From contig JAOAHF010000001.1 of assembly GCA_026415355.1 (NCBI GenBank), positions 74,022 to 138,021 of the forward strand: 64,000 nucleotides of DNA. The letters run 5' to 3'. This document shows positions 13,437-19,789 of the stretch, piece after piece. The position numbers and the translations under genes are program-made. The DNA is from Brevinematales bacterium (GTDB taxonomy: Bacteria; Spirochaetota; Brevinematia; DTOW01). Position 1 is the stretch's first letter. Each line of letters starts with the position of its first letter. A model generated the notes under the pieces. It did no database searches. It worked only from the letters and a program-made list of their open reading frames with translations, and was not told the DNA's origin.

Positions 13437-14282
13437 ATGTTCTATTACGATATAAATCTGTATAATGCTAGTAAAAATCTTTTTCAGAATACTCTTTTTG
13501 AAGATACTAATAACAACGATATAATATCCAACATAATACCCAATAGAAAAGATCAAGCTTATATACAAGCAAATGATAGAGGAGTTTTTGTAGGTGAAAT
13601 ATTCTCAATTGTTTTGGAGAAAGATTTTGGTATAAAGAGTTGTTCTCTTAAGGATGGTGAAGAATTTACAAAGGGTACGAAGATATTCTCCCTAGAGGGG
13701 AGTGCTAAGATGCTCCTCTCTATTGAGAGGACTCTGCTTAACATACTTACAATACTTATATCAATATCAACCACTACAAGAGAGTTTGTAAATGCTACTG
13801 AAGGTAAATTTGGTATTCTAGATACCAGGAAAACAATACCTGGACTTAGGTTTTTTCAGAAATATGCTGTTAGAGTAGGTGGTGGAGTTAATCATAGGTT
13901 TGGTTTGTACGATATGATAATGATAAAAGACAATCACATAGTAGTCTTTGAGGGAGATATACAAAAGTTAGTAAGGATGGCTAAAGAGTATTCACCTATG
14001 CATAAGGTTGAAGTTGAATGTGAAAATATGGAGCAAGTTAAGAAAGCTGTTGAGGCTGGTGCCGATGTTATAATGCTTGATAATATGTCTGTAAATGATA
14101 TAAAAGCTTCTGCGGAGTACATAAAGTCTATCAATCCAAACATAATAGTTGAAGCATCTGGAAATATTGACATTGATAAAATCAGAGATCTCGTTAAAGT
14201 TAATGCGCCTATTGACTTCGTATCCTCAAGTAAGTTGACTATGAGTTTCAAAGTTGTTGATTTATCGTTTGTTATAGAATAA
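13437..14282 (+). CDS. nadC: nicotinate-nucleotide diphosphorylase (carboxylating) / quinolinate phosphoribosyltransferase
   Basis: GILDTRKTIPGLRFFQKYAVRVGGGVNHRFGLYDMIMIKDNH and MLDNM are QPRTase signatures. The start follows the gpmA stop by 2 nt. Confidence 0.9.
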   Translation: MFYYDINLYNASKNLFQNTLFEDTNNNDIISNIIPNRKDQAYIQANDRGVFVGEIFSIVLEKDFGIKSCSLKDGEEFTKGTKIFSLEGSAKMLLSIERTLLNILTILISISTTTREFVNATEGKFGILDTRKTIPGLRFFQKYAVRVGGGVNHRFGLYDMIMIKDNHIVVFEGDIQKLVRMAKEYSPMHKVEVECENMEQVKKAVEAGADVIMLDNMSVNDIKASAEYIKSINPNIIVEASGNIDIDKIRDLVKVNAPIDFVSSSKLTMSFKVVDLSFVIE

Positions 14283-14286
14283 GTTG

Positions 14287-17200
14287 TTAAAGTTTGAATC
14301 TAAAGATTACTTCGTTAAATTCTATGCTGTAAATTTGATTTTTGTGTTCGTACTTTAAGTATTTGTCTTCTAGTATTTTTTTCATTATTTTGTAAGTATA
14401 AATTACATCCTCTTCACAATGTTTTATTACAGTTTCAATTTTACCTTCTCTAAAGAAGTTTGGTATATCTTTGCTATGAGTAGTTTTGCCTTGGGGATTT
14501 ATGTTGTTTCTGATAAGATTGTTTAGAGAAACTTTTGTGTCACCTATATGTTTTTTCAAAAGATCGTTGAGAATATCAAAAGTTTTCACAGAGTCGCAAA
14601 TTTCGAATCTACTATCGTATCTAGATAAGACTTTATAATCGAAGTTTCTAGAGTTGTATCCTATAACTATATCTGATGAGAAGAGTAATTCTATCAAAAG
14701 TTTTATGTTATTTTCGTTGAATATCAGTATTTTGTCTTCTTTTATGTCATACACAACTGCTATTGAGACTAACATATCTTTTGCGTTATCCCATCCTCCA
14801 ACTTCGTAAGAATATTTTTGTGTCTCTATGTCAAAGACTATAGGTTTTTTAAACTTTTCGAGAGGATATTCTAGAAGGTTATAGTAACCATACTTTTCGT
14901 TATTCTCGAGATAAGGCATTTCTTTTTTAAGATGTGTTATTGAGTACTTTATAAGTTTTGGGGTTATTGTTTCTTTTTCTTCGTTAGCTGGGGATTTCAG
15001 TGATTCCATTATAAAGTTAAGGATTTTAGTACCAATGTGCTTTGAGAGTATTGTATTTGCGTTACCACACTTAGGTGATTGGATGCAGGCAGGACATCCA
15101 CTATCTTCCTTACAATAACAGCTTTTTATAGCCGATAGTGCTCTTTCAACTATTTTTTCAAATTTTTCAAATGCAACTTCGGAATATCCTACTCCTCCTG
15201 ATATTCCTTCGTATATGAATATAGTTGGAGAGCTACCTCCGCTAACATATGATAATCCACCTATTTCGCTTCTACTACATATTATCTCTGAAGGATACAT
15301 ACCTATTATTGCGTGTTCTGCTGCATGTAGACCAGACCTTAGAATGTTTTCTTCGTTTAATTTAAATTTCTCTAATGAAATATTTCTTTCGAGTATTTCA
15401 TAATCTTTGTTGTAGTTGATAATTTTTCTAAGTTCTCCTCCATCAAATGTGATGACTATTCCTTCAGTTTCATACTCAAGTATATATGGGTTTGGGTATT
15501 CTATGTATTCTATTACCTTTCTCTCTATGGTTGCTTCTTCTTTTTGTTGTTTCCTTAAATATTCAATTACTAAGTATCCTGTGAATATTTCTTTTACTTT
15601 TAATTTGCAATAATTCAGTGATAAATTTTTTAACCTTTTAGATCTTATTACTCCTAGTATTTCAATGTCTTTATCATTAAGTACTTCTGTTATTTTTTCT
15701 TCCTGTGTTGGATATACTGTGACAATATCATTATTGAAATCTACTTTTTGTACAGCGAAATTTTCTCCCATGTGCATGTAAACTCCACCAGGATGACATT
15801 CCCAAAATAGGTTGTTTATGCTTATTTCACCAATCTTTTTGTTATCTTTTGAATTATAGATAACGAATGATTTTCCGATTCCTCTTATATTTATCATCTT
15901 TCTTAATTCGTTTTTGGAAATTGTTGTGAAGAAATATCGATCTCCAGTATTTGTACTATTTGATATTATTGCACTATGGCTATGATTTCTTATGAATTTT
16001 TCTATTGAATATATTGCTTCTGGTCCCCAGTACTTTTCGATTATGTCTGCTGTTATGTAGTTTCTATCAGTTTCTTTTAATTCGTTGTATAACATTATGA
16101 GGGTAGAAATGTAGTATCCTATTATTCTATCGTTTAGGACATTTGTTGTTAAGTTTTCTACTTCGTCTGAGAATAATTCTTTTGGATTTGAATAGAAGTA
16201 ATTATCAAGTATGTTTTCAGTTGGGAAAAATATTACAGTACCTTCTCTTATCCTTCCTGTTCTGCCAAATCTCTGTCTCAAAGAAATTCTTGACGATGGA
16301 AATCCTACTACACATACTACATCGAGATCTCCAATGTCTATTCCCATTTCAAAAGCGGATGTTGATATTAGTCCCATTATCTTGCCTGCTTTAAACATGT
16401 TTTCGATAGCAACTCTGTCATTATGGTCGTATCCTGACCTATACGGACTTACAAGTCTAGAAAGGTTTGGATTTTTTTTAATCGACTTTATTATTTTTTC
16501 AACCAATCTTCTTGATTTTACAAATACTAGGGTTTTCTTAGATAGATTTAGTACGAAGTTATTTAGTGTGTCAATAATTCTTTGGTTAGTACCGTATGTG
16601 AGTAGGTATGTTTTGTATGGTAATAGATATTCTATCTTGTTATTACCTGAAGTACTTCTATCTATTATTACAAATTCTTTTCCAAAAAGTGTTTCTATGA
16701 ATGATTTAGGATTACCTATTGTACCTGATAAAGCAAAATATCTCGCATTGTTTCCGTACAAGTCATTTAATACGTTTACTATTCTTAAGATGTTGCCAAA
16801 GTGAGACCCTTTTACACCAGACATTTCGTGTATTTCGTCAACTACTATTAGCTTTAGATTTTTCCAAAACCTTTCCCAACTTTTGTTGTAAAGTATCATA
16901 GAATAGATAAGTATTTCTGGATTTGTAAGGATGAATTGTCCTCTACTTTTTATTCTATCCCTTATTTTATCGCTTGTCCCAGAAGTTAGAGGATAGACTT
17001 CAATAAAAGGAACTGCTTTTGAAAGGTATTCTTGTATTTTTTTGTACTGATCGTTTATTAGCGCATTTATAGGAGCTATATAGAGTGCTGTTGCATTTTC
17101 CTCTTTATATAGCTCTTCGAGGTAAGATATAATGTACGATAATGTTTTACCTGATGCTGTTGGGGTAACTAGTGCTACATTGTTACCATTGTTAAACTTT

Positions 17201-17373
17201 TCAATTGCCTCTGCTTGATGTTTGTATAGTCTTATGTTTAACTCTTTGAGTAGTCTTTCAGAAAATTCTGACAATTCTATTTTGTCTGCGTATTCAGGAG
17301 GTGTTTGTCGCTTAGTATAAGCGATTTCAAATTTTGAGTATATATCAAATTGGGTTTTCAACATTTCGTCCAT
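14287..17373 (-). CDS. DExH-box helicase with DUF1998/MrfA-type zinc domain, fused to a C-terminal DEDDh-type 3'-5' exonuclease domain
   Basis: Helicase motifs TPTASGKT (I), DEIH (II), SGT (III) and QRFGRTGR (VI), followed by HAAEH and the CYCKEDSGCPACIQSPKCGN cysteine cluster. The last ~210 aa carry FDIET (Exo I), GYNSRNFDYKVL (Exo II) and HCEEDV (Exo III, H-x4-D). RBS AAGGAG. Confidence 0.85.
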   Translation of the reverse strand: MDEMLKTQFDIYSKFEIAYTKRQTPPEYADKIELSEFSERLLKELNIRLYKHQAEAIEKFNNGNNVALVTPTASGKTLSYIISYLEELYKEENATALYIAPINALINDQYKKIQEYLSKAVPFIEVYPLTSGTSDKIRDRIKSRGQFILTNPEILIYSMILYNKSWERFWKNLKLIVVDEIHEMSGVKGSHFGNILRIVNVLNDLYGNNARYFALSGTIGNPKSFIETLFGKEFVIIDRSTSGNNKIEYLLPYKTYLLTYGTNQRIIDTLNNFVLNLSKKTLVFVKSRRLVEKIIKSIKKNPNLSRLVSPYRSGYDHNDRVAIENMFKAGKIMGLISTSAFEMGIDIGDLDVVCVVGFPSSRISLRQRFGRTGRIREGTVIFFPTENILDNYFYSNPKELFSDEVENLTTNVLNDRIIGYYISTLIMLYNELKETDRNYITADIIEKYWGPEAIYSIEKFIRNHSHSAIISNSTNTGDRYFFTTISKNELRKMINIRGIGKSFVIYNSKDNKKIGEISINNLFWECHPGGVYMHMGENFAVQKVDFNNDIVTVYPTQEEKITEVLNDKDIEILGVIRSKRLKNLSLNYCKLKVKEIFTGYLVIEYLRKQQKEEATIERKVIEYIEYPNPYILEYETEGIVITFDGGELRKIINYNKDYEILERNISLEKFKLNEENILRSGLHAAEHAIIGMYPSEIICSRSEIGGLSYVSGGSSPTIFIYEGISGGVGYSEVAFEKFEKIVERALSAIKSCYCKEDSGCPACIQSPKCGNANTILSKHIGTKILNFIMESLKSPANEEKETITPKLIKYSITHLKKEMPYLENNEKYGYYNLLEYPLEKFKKPIVFDIETQKYSYEVGGWDNAKDMLVSIAVVYDIKEDKILIFNENNIKLLIELLFSSDIVIGYNSRNFDYKVLSRYDSRFEICDSVKTFDILNDLLKKHIGDTKVSLNNLIRNNINPQGKTTHSKDIPNFFREGKIETVIKHCEEDVIYTYKIMKKILEDKYLKYEHKNQIYSIEFNEVIFRFKL

Positions 17374-17393
17374 GTTTTGATGTCTCCTTAGAT

Positions 17394-19394
17394 TTAGAAT
17401 GGAATTCTTTCTATTGATATGTTATCAAATTCATCCTTTATTTTCAATACTAAAACTCCAGATGATAAGTTCAAATTGAACTTGAATTTTTCGATACTGC
17501 TATCTATAACTCCATCGTCTGGTAGTATGTACTCCCAGATATTTCCACCATCTGTTGAGTATGTTACTTCTTTTAATGAGTAGTTGTCATAGATTTCAAA
17601 CTCTATCTCTGTGAAATTGTGTTTTTTGCTAATTTTTACTTCTGATTTGTTTCTAATAGATGGGGGTGTGATGTCTGATATGTAGTTTTCGATATAGTTT
17701 GTTGAATAAAGTTCAAGGCCTTTGGGGTTTGAGGGATAGTCACTTGCTACTAGCATGAAGTTAAAAATACCGTTACCTATTGTATATCTACTTATTGAGA
17801 ATCTATTATCGTTTATGGGAGAAGTATTTAATTTTTGCCATTGAGTTTCGTTGTAGTTTCTTACAAATATATCGAAGTTTAATTTATCATTATCTTGATC
17901 GAGTGATTTCCATTCGAAGTTGAGGTTATCTTCTTTGTGAGACACACTAAAAGAAGATATGATAGGTCTAGAATTCCTAGGAGTGTAGTATAATGAAACA
18001 CTTCTTAGTATAGGTAGGTTATTTGAGGATTTTGATATAATTTCAACTTTAAGTTTTATGTATTGAAAAGTGTCTAGTTTAATGAATTCCTTTATTTCTG
18101 TCCAAGTTGACCAGGTTTGATCTTCCTTTGGAGTGTTACCACCTTTTATGAAGAATTTTATCACTGAATCTATGGGTATTTCTCCATCATATCTTATGCG
18201 TCCCCATTTGTATACATTACCTACCTCAATTTCTCTTGTTTCTATGTATCCATGGAAATTAGATTGGGACAAATCAATATAATCTAAGCCTGATGGATTA
18301 GCACTTGAAAGAACGATTTCATTACTGAATTTGAATATACTTACAAAATTTCTGTTATTTATTGAGTATTTTAATGTACCGTCTTCAAGAGAATATTCTA
18401 TGAATTTGCCGTCGATTGTTGTTGCGAAAACCTTGTTACCAAAAACTTCAGCAGATGTTATACCTAGTTCACTGAACAATGGTTCTATTCTTTTAGTTTG
18501 TATACTTATTTTATAGACATTACCTTGAGTGTTTCTTAATACGGTTTGGGGTGATGTTAAGGATGATGTTCTGTTATCTTGAGATGTTTGTTGAGATTGA
18601 TTAGGAGTTATGTTGTAAGTTGATACGATTAGGTATTCTCCATATTTTTTTATATCAGTTATTTCGTTGTCTTTGAGAGATATTAGTGGTTTTACGTTTT
18701 CCCCATCAAAGAAATATATAGTTCCTGTTCCACTTGATCCTATATATACACCATTTTCATCTCCTGCCACTGTAAGAAAGTGTTTTTCGTTTTTGTTTTC
18801 GAATACTTTCCTGATATTTTTACCTCTAAACTCATATATACATGCGTTATTTCCAGTTATAATGAAGTACCTACCTTTTAACTTAAATACATCCCATACA
18901 TAACTGTCATCTATAAAAAGTAGAGGATTACTACTAAAGGGTAGGAGAAGATAGATGGCTCCTTTTTCACCTGTAAGTATATATATTGAGTTATCAATAA
19001 CTCTCAATCTTGTTACAATAGAATGGTTGGGAATGCTTCCTAAATTTTCGACTTTTTTGTCGTTGTACAGATATATGTTATTTGGATTTGCTGTTGAGAA
19101 TATAAAATTTCTGTATGTTCCTTCAACCCAGCTTATGAATCCTTCTGTGCCTGTAAATATGTTATTGATAGAATAACCAGGGGATATTCCTTTATTGTTT
19201 TGTAGGAATGTTATGTTACTTATAATAGTGAAATCATTTATATTTTGAATAGTAAATCTTATTTCGAGCTTTTTGGTATAGACTCCGTGCAGTGTTTTCG
19301 CGACTAGTAGAATGTTTAGTATTATAAGTAATGTAGTGATGAGTGACTTTTTTTTCAAAGAGTATTTGTATATAGTGTACATCATTTTGTTCAT
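17394..19394 (-). CDS. hypothetical secreted/membrane-anchored beta-rich protein (666 aa)
   Basis: N-terminal signal-anchor (LITTLLIILNILLVA), then long beta-strand-like repeats (propeller or Ig-like by composition). No catalytic motif recognised. The start overlaps the doxX stop (TAATG). Confidence 0.6.
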   Translation of the reverse strand: MNKMMYTIYKYSLKKKSLITTLLIILNILLVAKTLHGVYTKKLEIRFTIQNINDFTIISNITFLQNNKGISPGYSINNIFTGTEGFISWVEGTYRNFIFSTANPNNIYLYNDKKVENLGSIPNHSIVTRLRVIDNSIYILTGEKGAIYLLLPFSSNPLLFIDDSYVWDVFKLKGRYFIITGNNACIYEFRGKNIRKVFENKNEKHFLTVAGDENGVYIGSSGTGTIYFFDGENVKPLISLKDNEITDIKKYGEYLIVSTYNITPNQSQQTSQDNRTSSLTSPQTVLRNTQGNVYKISIQTKRIEPLFSELGITSAEVFGNKVFATTIDGKFIEYSLEDGTLKYSINNRNFVSIFKFSNEIVLSSANPSGLDYIDLSQSNFHGYIETREIEVGNVYKWGRIRYDGEIPIDSVIKFFIKGGNTPKEDQTWSTWTEIKEFIKLDTFQYIKLKVEIISKSSNNLPILRSVSLYYTPRNSRPIISSFSVSHKEDNLNFEWKSLDQDNDKLNFDIFVRNYNETQWQKLNTSPINDNRFSISRYTIGNGIFNFMLVASDYPSNPKGLELYSTNYIENYISDITPPSIRNKSEVKISKKHNFTEIEFEIYDNYSLKEVTYSTDGGNIWEYILPDDGVIDSSIEKFKFNLNLSSGVLVLKIKDEFDNISIERIPF

Positions 19395-19789
19395 TATCTT
19401 TTCCTTATGTAATTATCAAGTGAAAATCTACCGGCACTTGTTAGTGAGAGTGTTATGAATATTCCTAGATATAGTAGAGATAACTCAAATGGAGCTCCAA
19501 TTCTTATATTGTGATATGTTGCGATGAGCATAACTAGAGAAAGGAGAATTGAGCTTATTTTTGTGAATAATCCTACTGTTACCATTATACCGCCCAAGAA
19601 CTCGATTAATCCTACTAGTATTGCGAATAATACAGGTAACGGAAAACCTATATTAGCAACAGTATCAACAAACTTCCATTCTTTGCCGTTTAGTAAGTAA
19701 AATATACCAACCATTTTGGTCCAACCGTGTAGTAGTACCATTAAAACTCCTGAGAATACTCTGATAACAAGGATACCTATATCAGTCAT
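19394..19789 (-). CDS. DoxX-family membrane protein
   Basis: 131 aa with four predicted TM segments and DoxX-like sequence (VIRVFSGVLMVLLHGWTKM...LVGLIEFLGGIMVTVGLF). Very strong RBS AAGGAGGAGG. Confidence 0.8.
   Translation of the reverse strand: MTDIGILVIRVFSGVLMVLLHGWTKMVGIFYLLNGKEWKFVDTVANIGFPLPVLFAILVGLIEFLGGIMVTVGLFTKISSILLSLVMLIATYHNIRIGAPFELSLLYLGIFITLSLTSAGRFSLDNYIRKR

Follow-up and report, generated by a model that had tools for sequence, protein, structure and literature searches.

Locus and gene

We analysed a 64,000-nucleotide stretch of contig JAOAHF010000001.1 (positions 74,022 to 138,021), from a Brevinematales bacterium and hereafter called the window, and within it the gene at positions 14287..17373, in which a sequence-only reading had recognised a natural fusion of an MrfA/YprA-type helicase to a DnaQ-like 3'-5' exonuclease. 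The interval corresponds to exactly one open reading frame (ORF), which lies on the minus strand and comprises 1028 codons and a stop; its limits had been given exactly, and its strand had been omitted. A plus-strand reading was discarded, its translation being riddled with stops, whereas the minus-strand translation is open throughout. The deduced 1028-aa protein is 100% identical to a record (P0001) from a Brevinematales metagenome-assembled genome, where its label is 'DEAD/DEAH box helicase', and it combines, in a single chain, a complete helicase and an apparently active exonuclease (Table 1).

Homology searches returned 13 close full-length relatives (1024-1079 aa, 53-72% identity) from Brevinematia and Spirochaetota, and more than 100 further fused proteins (~940-1040 aa, ~30-35% identity, 92-98% query coverage). 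Because the 13 close and the more than 100 distant homologues align end to end with the deduced protein, a frameshift or an assembly artefact is excluded as the source of the fusion. The alignments also show no trace of the gene-splitting frameshift that the first reading had allowed for, and its single continuous polypeptide is borne out. Counts of invariant residues below refer to an alignment (A2) of 119 full-length fused homologues. The guanine-plus-cytosine (GC) content of the gene (30-32%) is that of the window (31.9%), and a scan for promoters and terminators found nothing exceeding the shuffled background.

Table 1. Coordinates, in the window, of the fused gene, its parts and its upstream neighbours
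Feature	Window positions	Strand	Basis or remark
Fused helicase-exonuclease gene	14287..17373	-	Complete ORF, 1028 aa plus stop
AAGGAG ribosome-binding site	17384..17389	-	10 nt upstream of the ATG at 17373; read from the sequence
SF2 DExH helicase core, RecA1 and RecA2, residues ~47-400	16174..17235	-	Motifs I, II, III and VI; Pfam DEAD and Helicase_C
Winged-helix, OB and beta-sheet connector, residues ~418-684; counterpart of the MrfA 'canopy'	15322..16122	-	phmmer; full-length model
MZB/DUF1998 zinc-binding domain, residues 685-769	15067..15321	-	PF09369; HAAEH plus C752, C754, C760, C763 and C769
Linker, residues 770-843, with a disordered stretch at 800-817	14845..15066	-	Low confidence in the full-length model; poor conservation
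DEDD 3'-5' exonuclease domain, residues 844-1028, PolB/RNase D-like fold (predicted)	14290..14844	-	Profiles; model
Exo I, FDIET, residues 847-851 (D848, E850)	14821..14835	-	Both acids in 119/119 homologues
Exo II, NSRNFDYKVL, residues 907-916 (D912)	14626..14655	-	N907, F911, D912 and V915 in 119/119
Exo III, HCEEDV, residues 985-990 (H985-x3-D989)	14404..14421	-	C986, D989 and V990 in 119/119
666-aa ORF	17394-19394	-	20 nt upstream of the helicase gene, same strand; hydrophobic, signal-like N-terminus
DoxX-family gene	19394-19789	same as helicase gene	Upstream; stop overlaps the start of the 666-aa ORF

Helicase half

Residues 1 to ~795 form a complete MrfA/YprA-type DExH helicase with a DUF1998/MZB zinc module, because the results from Pfam, PDB sequences, structural models and residue conservation agree. 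The Pfam models DEAD (1e-27, residues 51-221), Helicase_C (5e-18, residues 275-375) and MZB/DUF1998 (E=1.6e-20, the whole profile, 1-80, covered) all matched the protein. The motifs of the superfamily 2 (SF2) core are located at residues 70-77 (TPTASGKT, motif I), 179-182 (DEIH, motif II), 216-218 (SGT, motif III) and 367-374 (QRFGRTGR, motif VI), with K76, D179, E180, H182, S216, T218, Q367, R368, R371 and R374 invariant. In the zinc module, the HAAEH motif at 683-687 and a cysteine cluster at 752-769, CYCKEDSGCPACIQSPKC, contribute H683, E686, H687 and five cysteines, also invariant. Every motif quoted in the sequence-only reading, which had described a complete SF2 core and a DUF1998 cluster, was thus found, and the three Pfam models confirm the assignment.

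In a phmmer search of PDB sequences, the sole strong match was YprA/MrfA of Bacillus subtilis (6znp_A, E=6e-73), in a collinear alignment spanning residues 24-598 and 687-766, as the proposed kinship with YprA would have it. A full-length AlphaFold2 model built on the 119 homologues reached a mean pLDDT (predicted value of the local distance difference test) of 90.4, and the best four PDB matches retrieved with it by Foldseek were MrfA structures (6znp/6znq/6zns, E=1.7e-50 to 3e-32), with template modelling scores (TM-scores), normalised to the MrfA structures, of 0.69-0.78; the next matches were Lhr and Hel308, at 1e-17. The model reproduces the NTR-RecA1-RecA2-WH-OB-CON-MZB order of the MrfA crystal structures, the N-terminal strand included, and contains long beta strands across residues 561-643. 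The Pfam model WHD_HRQ1 found no match in the 1028-aa protein; it does match distant fused homologues. By analogy with MrfA, this half would be expected to translocate 3'->5' on DNA and to unwind it at the expense of ATP.

Exonuclease domain

The helicase is followed by a linker that is weakly conserved in alignments A1 and A2 and whose pLDDT falls below 50 at residues 771-773 and 800-817. This flexible segment tethers a compact exonuclease in which the four metal-binding acids and the general-base position are intact.

When the full-length protein was scanned with Pfam, three DEDD models (PF10108, PF13482 and PF01612) remained slightly under their cut-offs, PF13482 with 21.8 bits. Scanning the C-terminal 229 aa alone raised PF13482 (RNase_H_2) to 26.7 bits (cut-off 22) and PF10108 to 25.5 bits (cut-off 24), with PF01612 just reaching its cut-off of 23.6 at 23.6 bits. 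PF13482 was matched by 23 of 24 fused-family exonuclease domains (best E=5.8e-11), and many fused homologues carry a precomputed match to it. The Exo I, II and III motifs, which had been read in a C-terminal region of ~210 aa, were all recovered, and the four catalytic acids D848, E850, D912 and D989 are invariant in 119/119 homologues; selection therefore maintains the domain as an active nuclease. An apparently active DEDD 3'-5' exonuclease thus makes up the C-terminal ~185 residues, as profile matches and conserved acids alike had been expected to show.

The separate model of the domain (pLDDT 91.9) retrieved, with Foldseek, archaeal family-B polymerase exonuclease domains first (E~1e-6), and in structural comparisons Pol epsilon, diDNase, RNase D and ExoI scored ~12, against 10.8 for DnaQ/epsilon. 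The predicted fold is therefore closest to the PolB, PolA and RNase D types, not to DnaQ/epsilon. The label 'DnaQ-like DEDDh' given by the sequence-only reading holds for the four acids and the histidine of this protein, but not for the fold, which is PolB/RNase D-like, nor for the wider family, which is DEDDy. The tetratricopeptide repeat (TPR) tail of MrfB was rightly considered absent: no Pfam TPR match follows the exonuclease, and the protein ends ~40 residues past Exo III, after three short beta strands.

Directly after Exo I, the sequence EVGGW (residues 857-861; window positions 14791-14805, minus strand) contains three residues, G859, G860 and W861, that are invariant in 119/119 fused homologues. 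EVGGW also occurs in a stand-alone relative (P0201, see below) and is a signature of the subfamily. It is only speculative that it might act as a strand-separating wedge corresponding to Leu113 of MrfB.

Relation to MrfB and the residue at position 985

For comparison with MrfB, we fetched 80 Bacillales yprAB loci with a YprA fragment rebuilt from the 6znp_A alignment, and obtained 50 MrfB orthologues; the set includes B. pumilus, B. sonorensis and others, with B. subtilis absent from the fetched loci. MrfB from B. pumilus is a strong member of PF13482 (134 bits). An hhalign comparison of the fused-family exonuclease with the 50 MrfB sequences gave a probability of 40% and E=3e-4 over 166 columns, with Exo I (FDIET in the fused proteins, FFDTET in MrfB), Exo II (NxxNFDY, NGKAFDW), the motif that follows it (FDIL, FDLL) and Exo III (HCEED, HNExD) all in register. 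By blastp, the exonuclease scored ~24 bits against Bacillales MrfB, which is noise level. The likening to YprB stands for the motifs; overall sequence similarity is marginal. A profile of 24 exonuclease sequences retrieved from the PDB sequences only weak DEDDy matches (diDNase ancestor, 9e-5, and Pol delta), and a phmmer search of the same sequences with the whole protein did not retrieve the MrfB entry 8UN9. We thus place the domain, from its profile matches, in the Pfam family of MrfB with the same active-site layout, and make no claim at the level of orthology.

The histidine and aspartate of Exo III, H985 and D989, are spaced H-x3-D and not H-x4-D, as had been read. This position spacing is also that of DEDDy enzymes. 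In MrfB, the corresponding residues are H258 and D262 (PMC11194089), with the same H-x3-D spacing. Residue 985 is His in all 14 proteins of the Brevinematia clade and Tyr in the other 105 fused homologues of alignment A2; Tyr occupies it also in 142 of 148 further cluster representatives. In both fold and ancestry, the exonuclease is of the DEDDy type, with a His in the Brevinematia clade. This DEDDy-to-DEDDh switch inside one orthologous family parallels an oddity of MrfB, reported to possess a DEDDy-like fold yet a DEDDh active site (PMC11194089).

Distribution of the fusion

Full-length fused homologues occur in several bacterial groups, among them the phylum Desulfobacterota; named records derive from Desulfobacteraceae, Desulfobulbaceae, Desulforhopalus, Desulfopila, Desulfofustis, Firestonebacteria, Glassbacteria and others. 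The 14 sequences of the Brevinematia clade (53-100% identity) form a divergent branch, with ~30-35% identity to other fused proteins and a longer linker, with ~45 extra residues before Exo I. Comparison of the two halves with the fused proteins and with the split Bacillales pair gave median scores of 351 and 244 bits, respectively, for the helicase half (against MrfA) and of 98 and 24 bits for the exonuclease half (against MrfB). In both halves, similarity to other fused proteins exceeds that to the split pair, and the fused proteins therefore constitute a lineage of their own. The fusion is real and old. It is widespread in many bacteria and has already been mentioned in the literature; what is new here in detail is that the Brevinematia clade is divergent and has replaced Tyr by His.

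An exhaustive search with the exonuclease profile retrieved 4891 clusters (50% identity) at E<=1e-3 and 590 at E<=1e-30. Among the best 150 matches, 148 were newly returned proteins, and these comprised full-length fusions (31/148), shorter forms still containing helicase or MZB sequence (44/148), exonucleases with an unmatched N-terminal extension (32/148), stand-alone exonuclease-sized proteins (37/148) and proteins with other C-terminal extensions (4/148). Short forms on contigs under 1 kb may be fragments: the contigs of three stand-alone relatives measure 714, 862 and 2236 bp, and only the last is informative.

One exonuclease of 178 aa (P0201, at L089 290-826) clearly stands alone: upstream of it lies neither helicase nor MZB sequence, and downstream lies a Mur ligase gene; the domain therefore exists also as an independent gene. 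Of the four proteins with other C-terminal extensions, one, a close relative of the exonuclease (P0187, 464 aa, E~1e-61), carries a C-terminal Siphovirus Gp157 domain recognised by Pfam; the subfamily is therefore also present in phage-type proteins.

Genomic context

Downstream of the fused gene, and convergent with it, lie nadC and gpmA. The nadC stop ends at 14282 and the stop codon of the helicase occupies 14287-14289, leaving the convergent ends 4 nt apart; no terminator-like hairpin was detected in the nadC-helicase gap (window 14283-14289). Upstream, the 666-aa ORF had no Pfam, NCBIfam or PADLOC match. It was rejected as a functional partner, having no family match and being absent beside orthologues at 71% and 56% identity.

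These two orthologues, and two distant fused homologues, have wholly different housekeeping neighbours; those found in other genomes include P-II, lepA, ribosomal proteins, polA, gyrB and a penicillin-binding protein. Searches for defence partners (methyltransferase, PLD nuclease or other) found none nearby in five genomes, and PADLOC yielded partial matches only, to the helicase core or the MZB domain. The context shows no conserved operon, defence island or sign of recent transfer, and a horizontally transferred gene or defence island was rejected, the GC content being equal to that of the window and defence genes being absent nearby. The survey of the fusion and its neighbours thus found the former to be common (more than 100 full-length proteins in several bacterial groups) and the latter to be unrelated housekeeping genes. 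The sequence-only reading had held that repair and defence could not be told apart from sequence. They can be, in part: repair is favoured because the context is housekeeping and unconserved and no defence model matches the protein over its full length.

A probable repair enzyme and the alternatives

We consider the gene likely to be chromosomal and vertically inherited, its product being a single-chain helicase-nuclease of the repair branch of the YprA/MrfA family. By the biochemistry of MrfA and MrfB (10.1101/426304, PMC7797055, PMC11194089), the helicase would load at a nick or gap, on single-stranded DNA, and travel 3'->5' using ATP, its movement peeling the damaged strand off its partner. 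The freed 3' end would be passed to the tethered, Mg/Mn-dependent 3'-5' exonuclease, which would degrade it past the lesion; a polymerase would then fill the remaining gap and a ligase seal it. The covalent linkage, which implies that the two parts act jointly, would stand in for the non-covalent interaction of MrfA with MrfB and would make the TPR tail of MrfB unnecessary.

Several points weigh against this interpretation. Our search of the literature found no biochemical study of any fused member, and it is by analogy with B. subtilis MrfA and MrfB, to which identity is ~27% for the helicase and ~19-25% for the exonuclease, that the enzyme is given a polarity, a preference for DNA rather than RNA and a coupling between its two activities. 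The likeness of the exonuclease to MrfB is marginal in sequence (the hhalign probability of 40%), and the 24-sequence exonuclease profile did not retrieve 8UN9 from the PDB sequences at E<=1. In the model, the relative placement of the helicase and exonuclease bodies is uncertain, given the disordered linker and a predicted TM-score (pTM) of 0.77. In the MrfAB pathway of mitomycin C repair, helicase and exonuclease work together, and their loss brings about a specific sensitivity to mitomycin C. Additionally, the function of MrfAB was not transferable even between Bacillus and Pseudomonas homologues (10.1101/426304), and because it fails to transfer between distant species, specificity for mitomycin is not to be assumed.

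A first alternative differs from the repair interpretation in evolutionary history only, with the same biochemistry: a YprA helicase would have captured a stand-alone PolB/RNase D-like DEDDy exonuclease, and the likeness to MrfAB would be convergent design. The exonuclease is indeed far nearer to stand-alone subfamily proteins of ~180-250 aa (E 1e-54 to 1e-69) than to MrfB, one such protein lies without an adjoining helicase, another member is fused to the phage Gp157 domain, and MrfB is DEDDh, unlike the DEDDy subfamily. However, the subfamily falls within PF13482, the family of MrfB, its three Exo motifs and the FDIL/FDLL motif align in register with those of MrfB, many of the 'stand-alone' matches may be fragments, and a survey of the YprA family counts the fused domains as MrfB/YprB homologues (10.1101/2025.09.15.676423). 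We regard as rather unlikely a scenario in which the fused family arose by an independent and much more widespread capture, after which Brevinematia switched the general base from Tyr to His and reached an MrfB-like state. Were it true, the family would be a natural experiment on the choice between Tyr and His in the DEDDy fold and, as a single chain, would offer a ready model of how MrfA and MrfB are arranged in their complex, with stand-alone and phage-linked relatives of the exonuclease still circulating.

It is improbable that the protein processes or degrades RNA, with a DExH RNA helicase supplying a DEDD exoribonuclease akin to RNase D or nanoRNase. RNA is the substrate of many SF2 DExH proteins, and some homologue records are named 'ATP-dependent RNA helicase' (P0097), but these names were assigned automatically, the helicase resembles MrfA specifically, DNA was the ligand in the MrfA crystals (6znp), and MrfB favours a DNA over an RNA 3' end (PMC11194089).

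Least probable of all, and very unlikely in our judgement, is an anti-phage or anti-plasmid helicase-nuclease that degrades foreign DNA in the manner of the YprA-family effectors in DISARM, Dpd, Druantia, ARMADA or TALON. In its favour, several defence systems centre on YprA-family helicases that bear a nuclease domain at the C-terminus, TALON helicases have an RNase H-fold C-terminal domain (10.1101/2025.09.15.676423), and the PADLOC models SngC, BrxH and DruE match the helicase core and MZB (E 1e-45 to 1e-30). Against it, these matches are limited to generic core or MZB sequence, the protein runs collinear with MrfA (749 aa) and lacks the inserted domains of the defence branch, the TALON domain is described as inactivated whereas the catalytic residues here are invariant, TALON is described as occurring largely in Chloroflexota, together with NERD, TPR-CSD and TBP genes (10.1101/2025.09.15.676423), and the gene lies among housekeeping neighbours that vary between genomes, with the GC content of its surroundings.

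Significance

The structure papers on MrfA and MrfB are silent on the fusion, and they do not settle how the two proteins contact each other or how DNA is handed over from helicase to nuclease (PMC7797055, PMC11194089). A natural single chain with a short tether fixes both stoichiometry and proximity and could be convenient for structure determination and single-molecule experiments. In spread, the fused form appears at least to equal the two-gene form of Bacillus, and general statements on 'MrfAB' repair should therefore include it. There is also a gap in annotation: the fused proteins are labelled just 'DEAD/DEAH box helicase', and their nuclease half goes unreported.

Comparison with known systems

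A preprint on the YprA family separates a repair branch from a defence branch comprising DISARM, Dpd, Druantia, ARMADA, BRIGADE and TALON; it describes a BrxA-like insert in the helicases of ARMADA, BRIGADE, TALON and Druantia, and additional zinc modules in those of the defence branch (10.1101/2025.09.15.676423). The gene studied here has neither the operon partners of these systems, such as a methyltransferase, a PLD, PD-(D/E)xK or NERD nuclease, DrmB/ArmA-type helicases or TPR-CSD/TBP, nor their BrxA-like or extra zinc inserts, as judged from its neighbours, the PADLOC matches and its collinearity with MrfA. Like our protein, WRN and Staphylococcus aureus DinG (SaDinG) join an SF2 helicase and a DEDD 3'-5' exonuclease in one chain, but in both the exonuclease is N-terminal, the helicases are RecQ and XPD/DinG-like, respectively, and there is no DUF1998/MZB canopy; SaDinG moves 5'->3' (PMC12345164).

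With B. subtilis MrfA (6ZNP/6ZNQ/6ZNS), the protein shares the DExH core, the winged helix and the OB-connector-MZB canopy with its cysteine cluster, collinear over residues 24-766, at ~24-27% identity, and it adds ~260 C-terminal residues, that is, the linker and the exonuclease. With B. subtilis MrfB (YprB, 8UN9), the exonuclease shares PF13482, the DEDD acids with a His four residues before the last Asp, a PolB-exonuclease-like fold with a long final helix, and structural neighbours of the kinds reported for MrfB (PMC11194089). MrfB differs in being a protein of its own, of 413 aa, with a long extension at the N-terminus and a TPR domain at the C-terminus, whereas the exonuclease here lacks the TPR and is attached to the helicase, and the His of MrfB contrasts with the Tyr of the fused family outside the Brevinematia clade.

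The closest counterparts are the fused YprA-YprB proteins of the repair branch, to which the 2025 preprint refers as helicases 'fused to MrfB/YprB homologs' (bioRxiv 10.1101/2025.09.15.676423). They have the same architecture (DEAD, Helicase_C, MZB and PF13482) in more than 100 full-length proteins of ~940-1080 aa, from which the Brevinematia clade differs in its longer linker, the Tyr-to-His replacement and a winged helix that WHD_HRQ1 does not detect. The protein is otherwise an expected member of a described family and, most likely, an ordinary DNA-repair enzyme.

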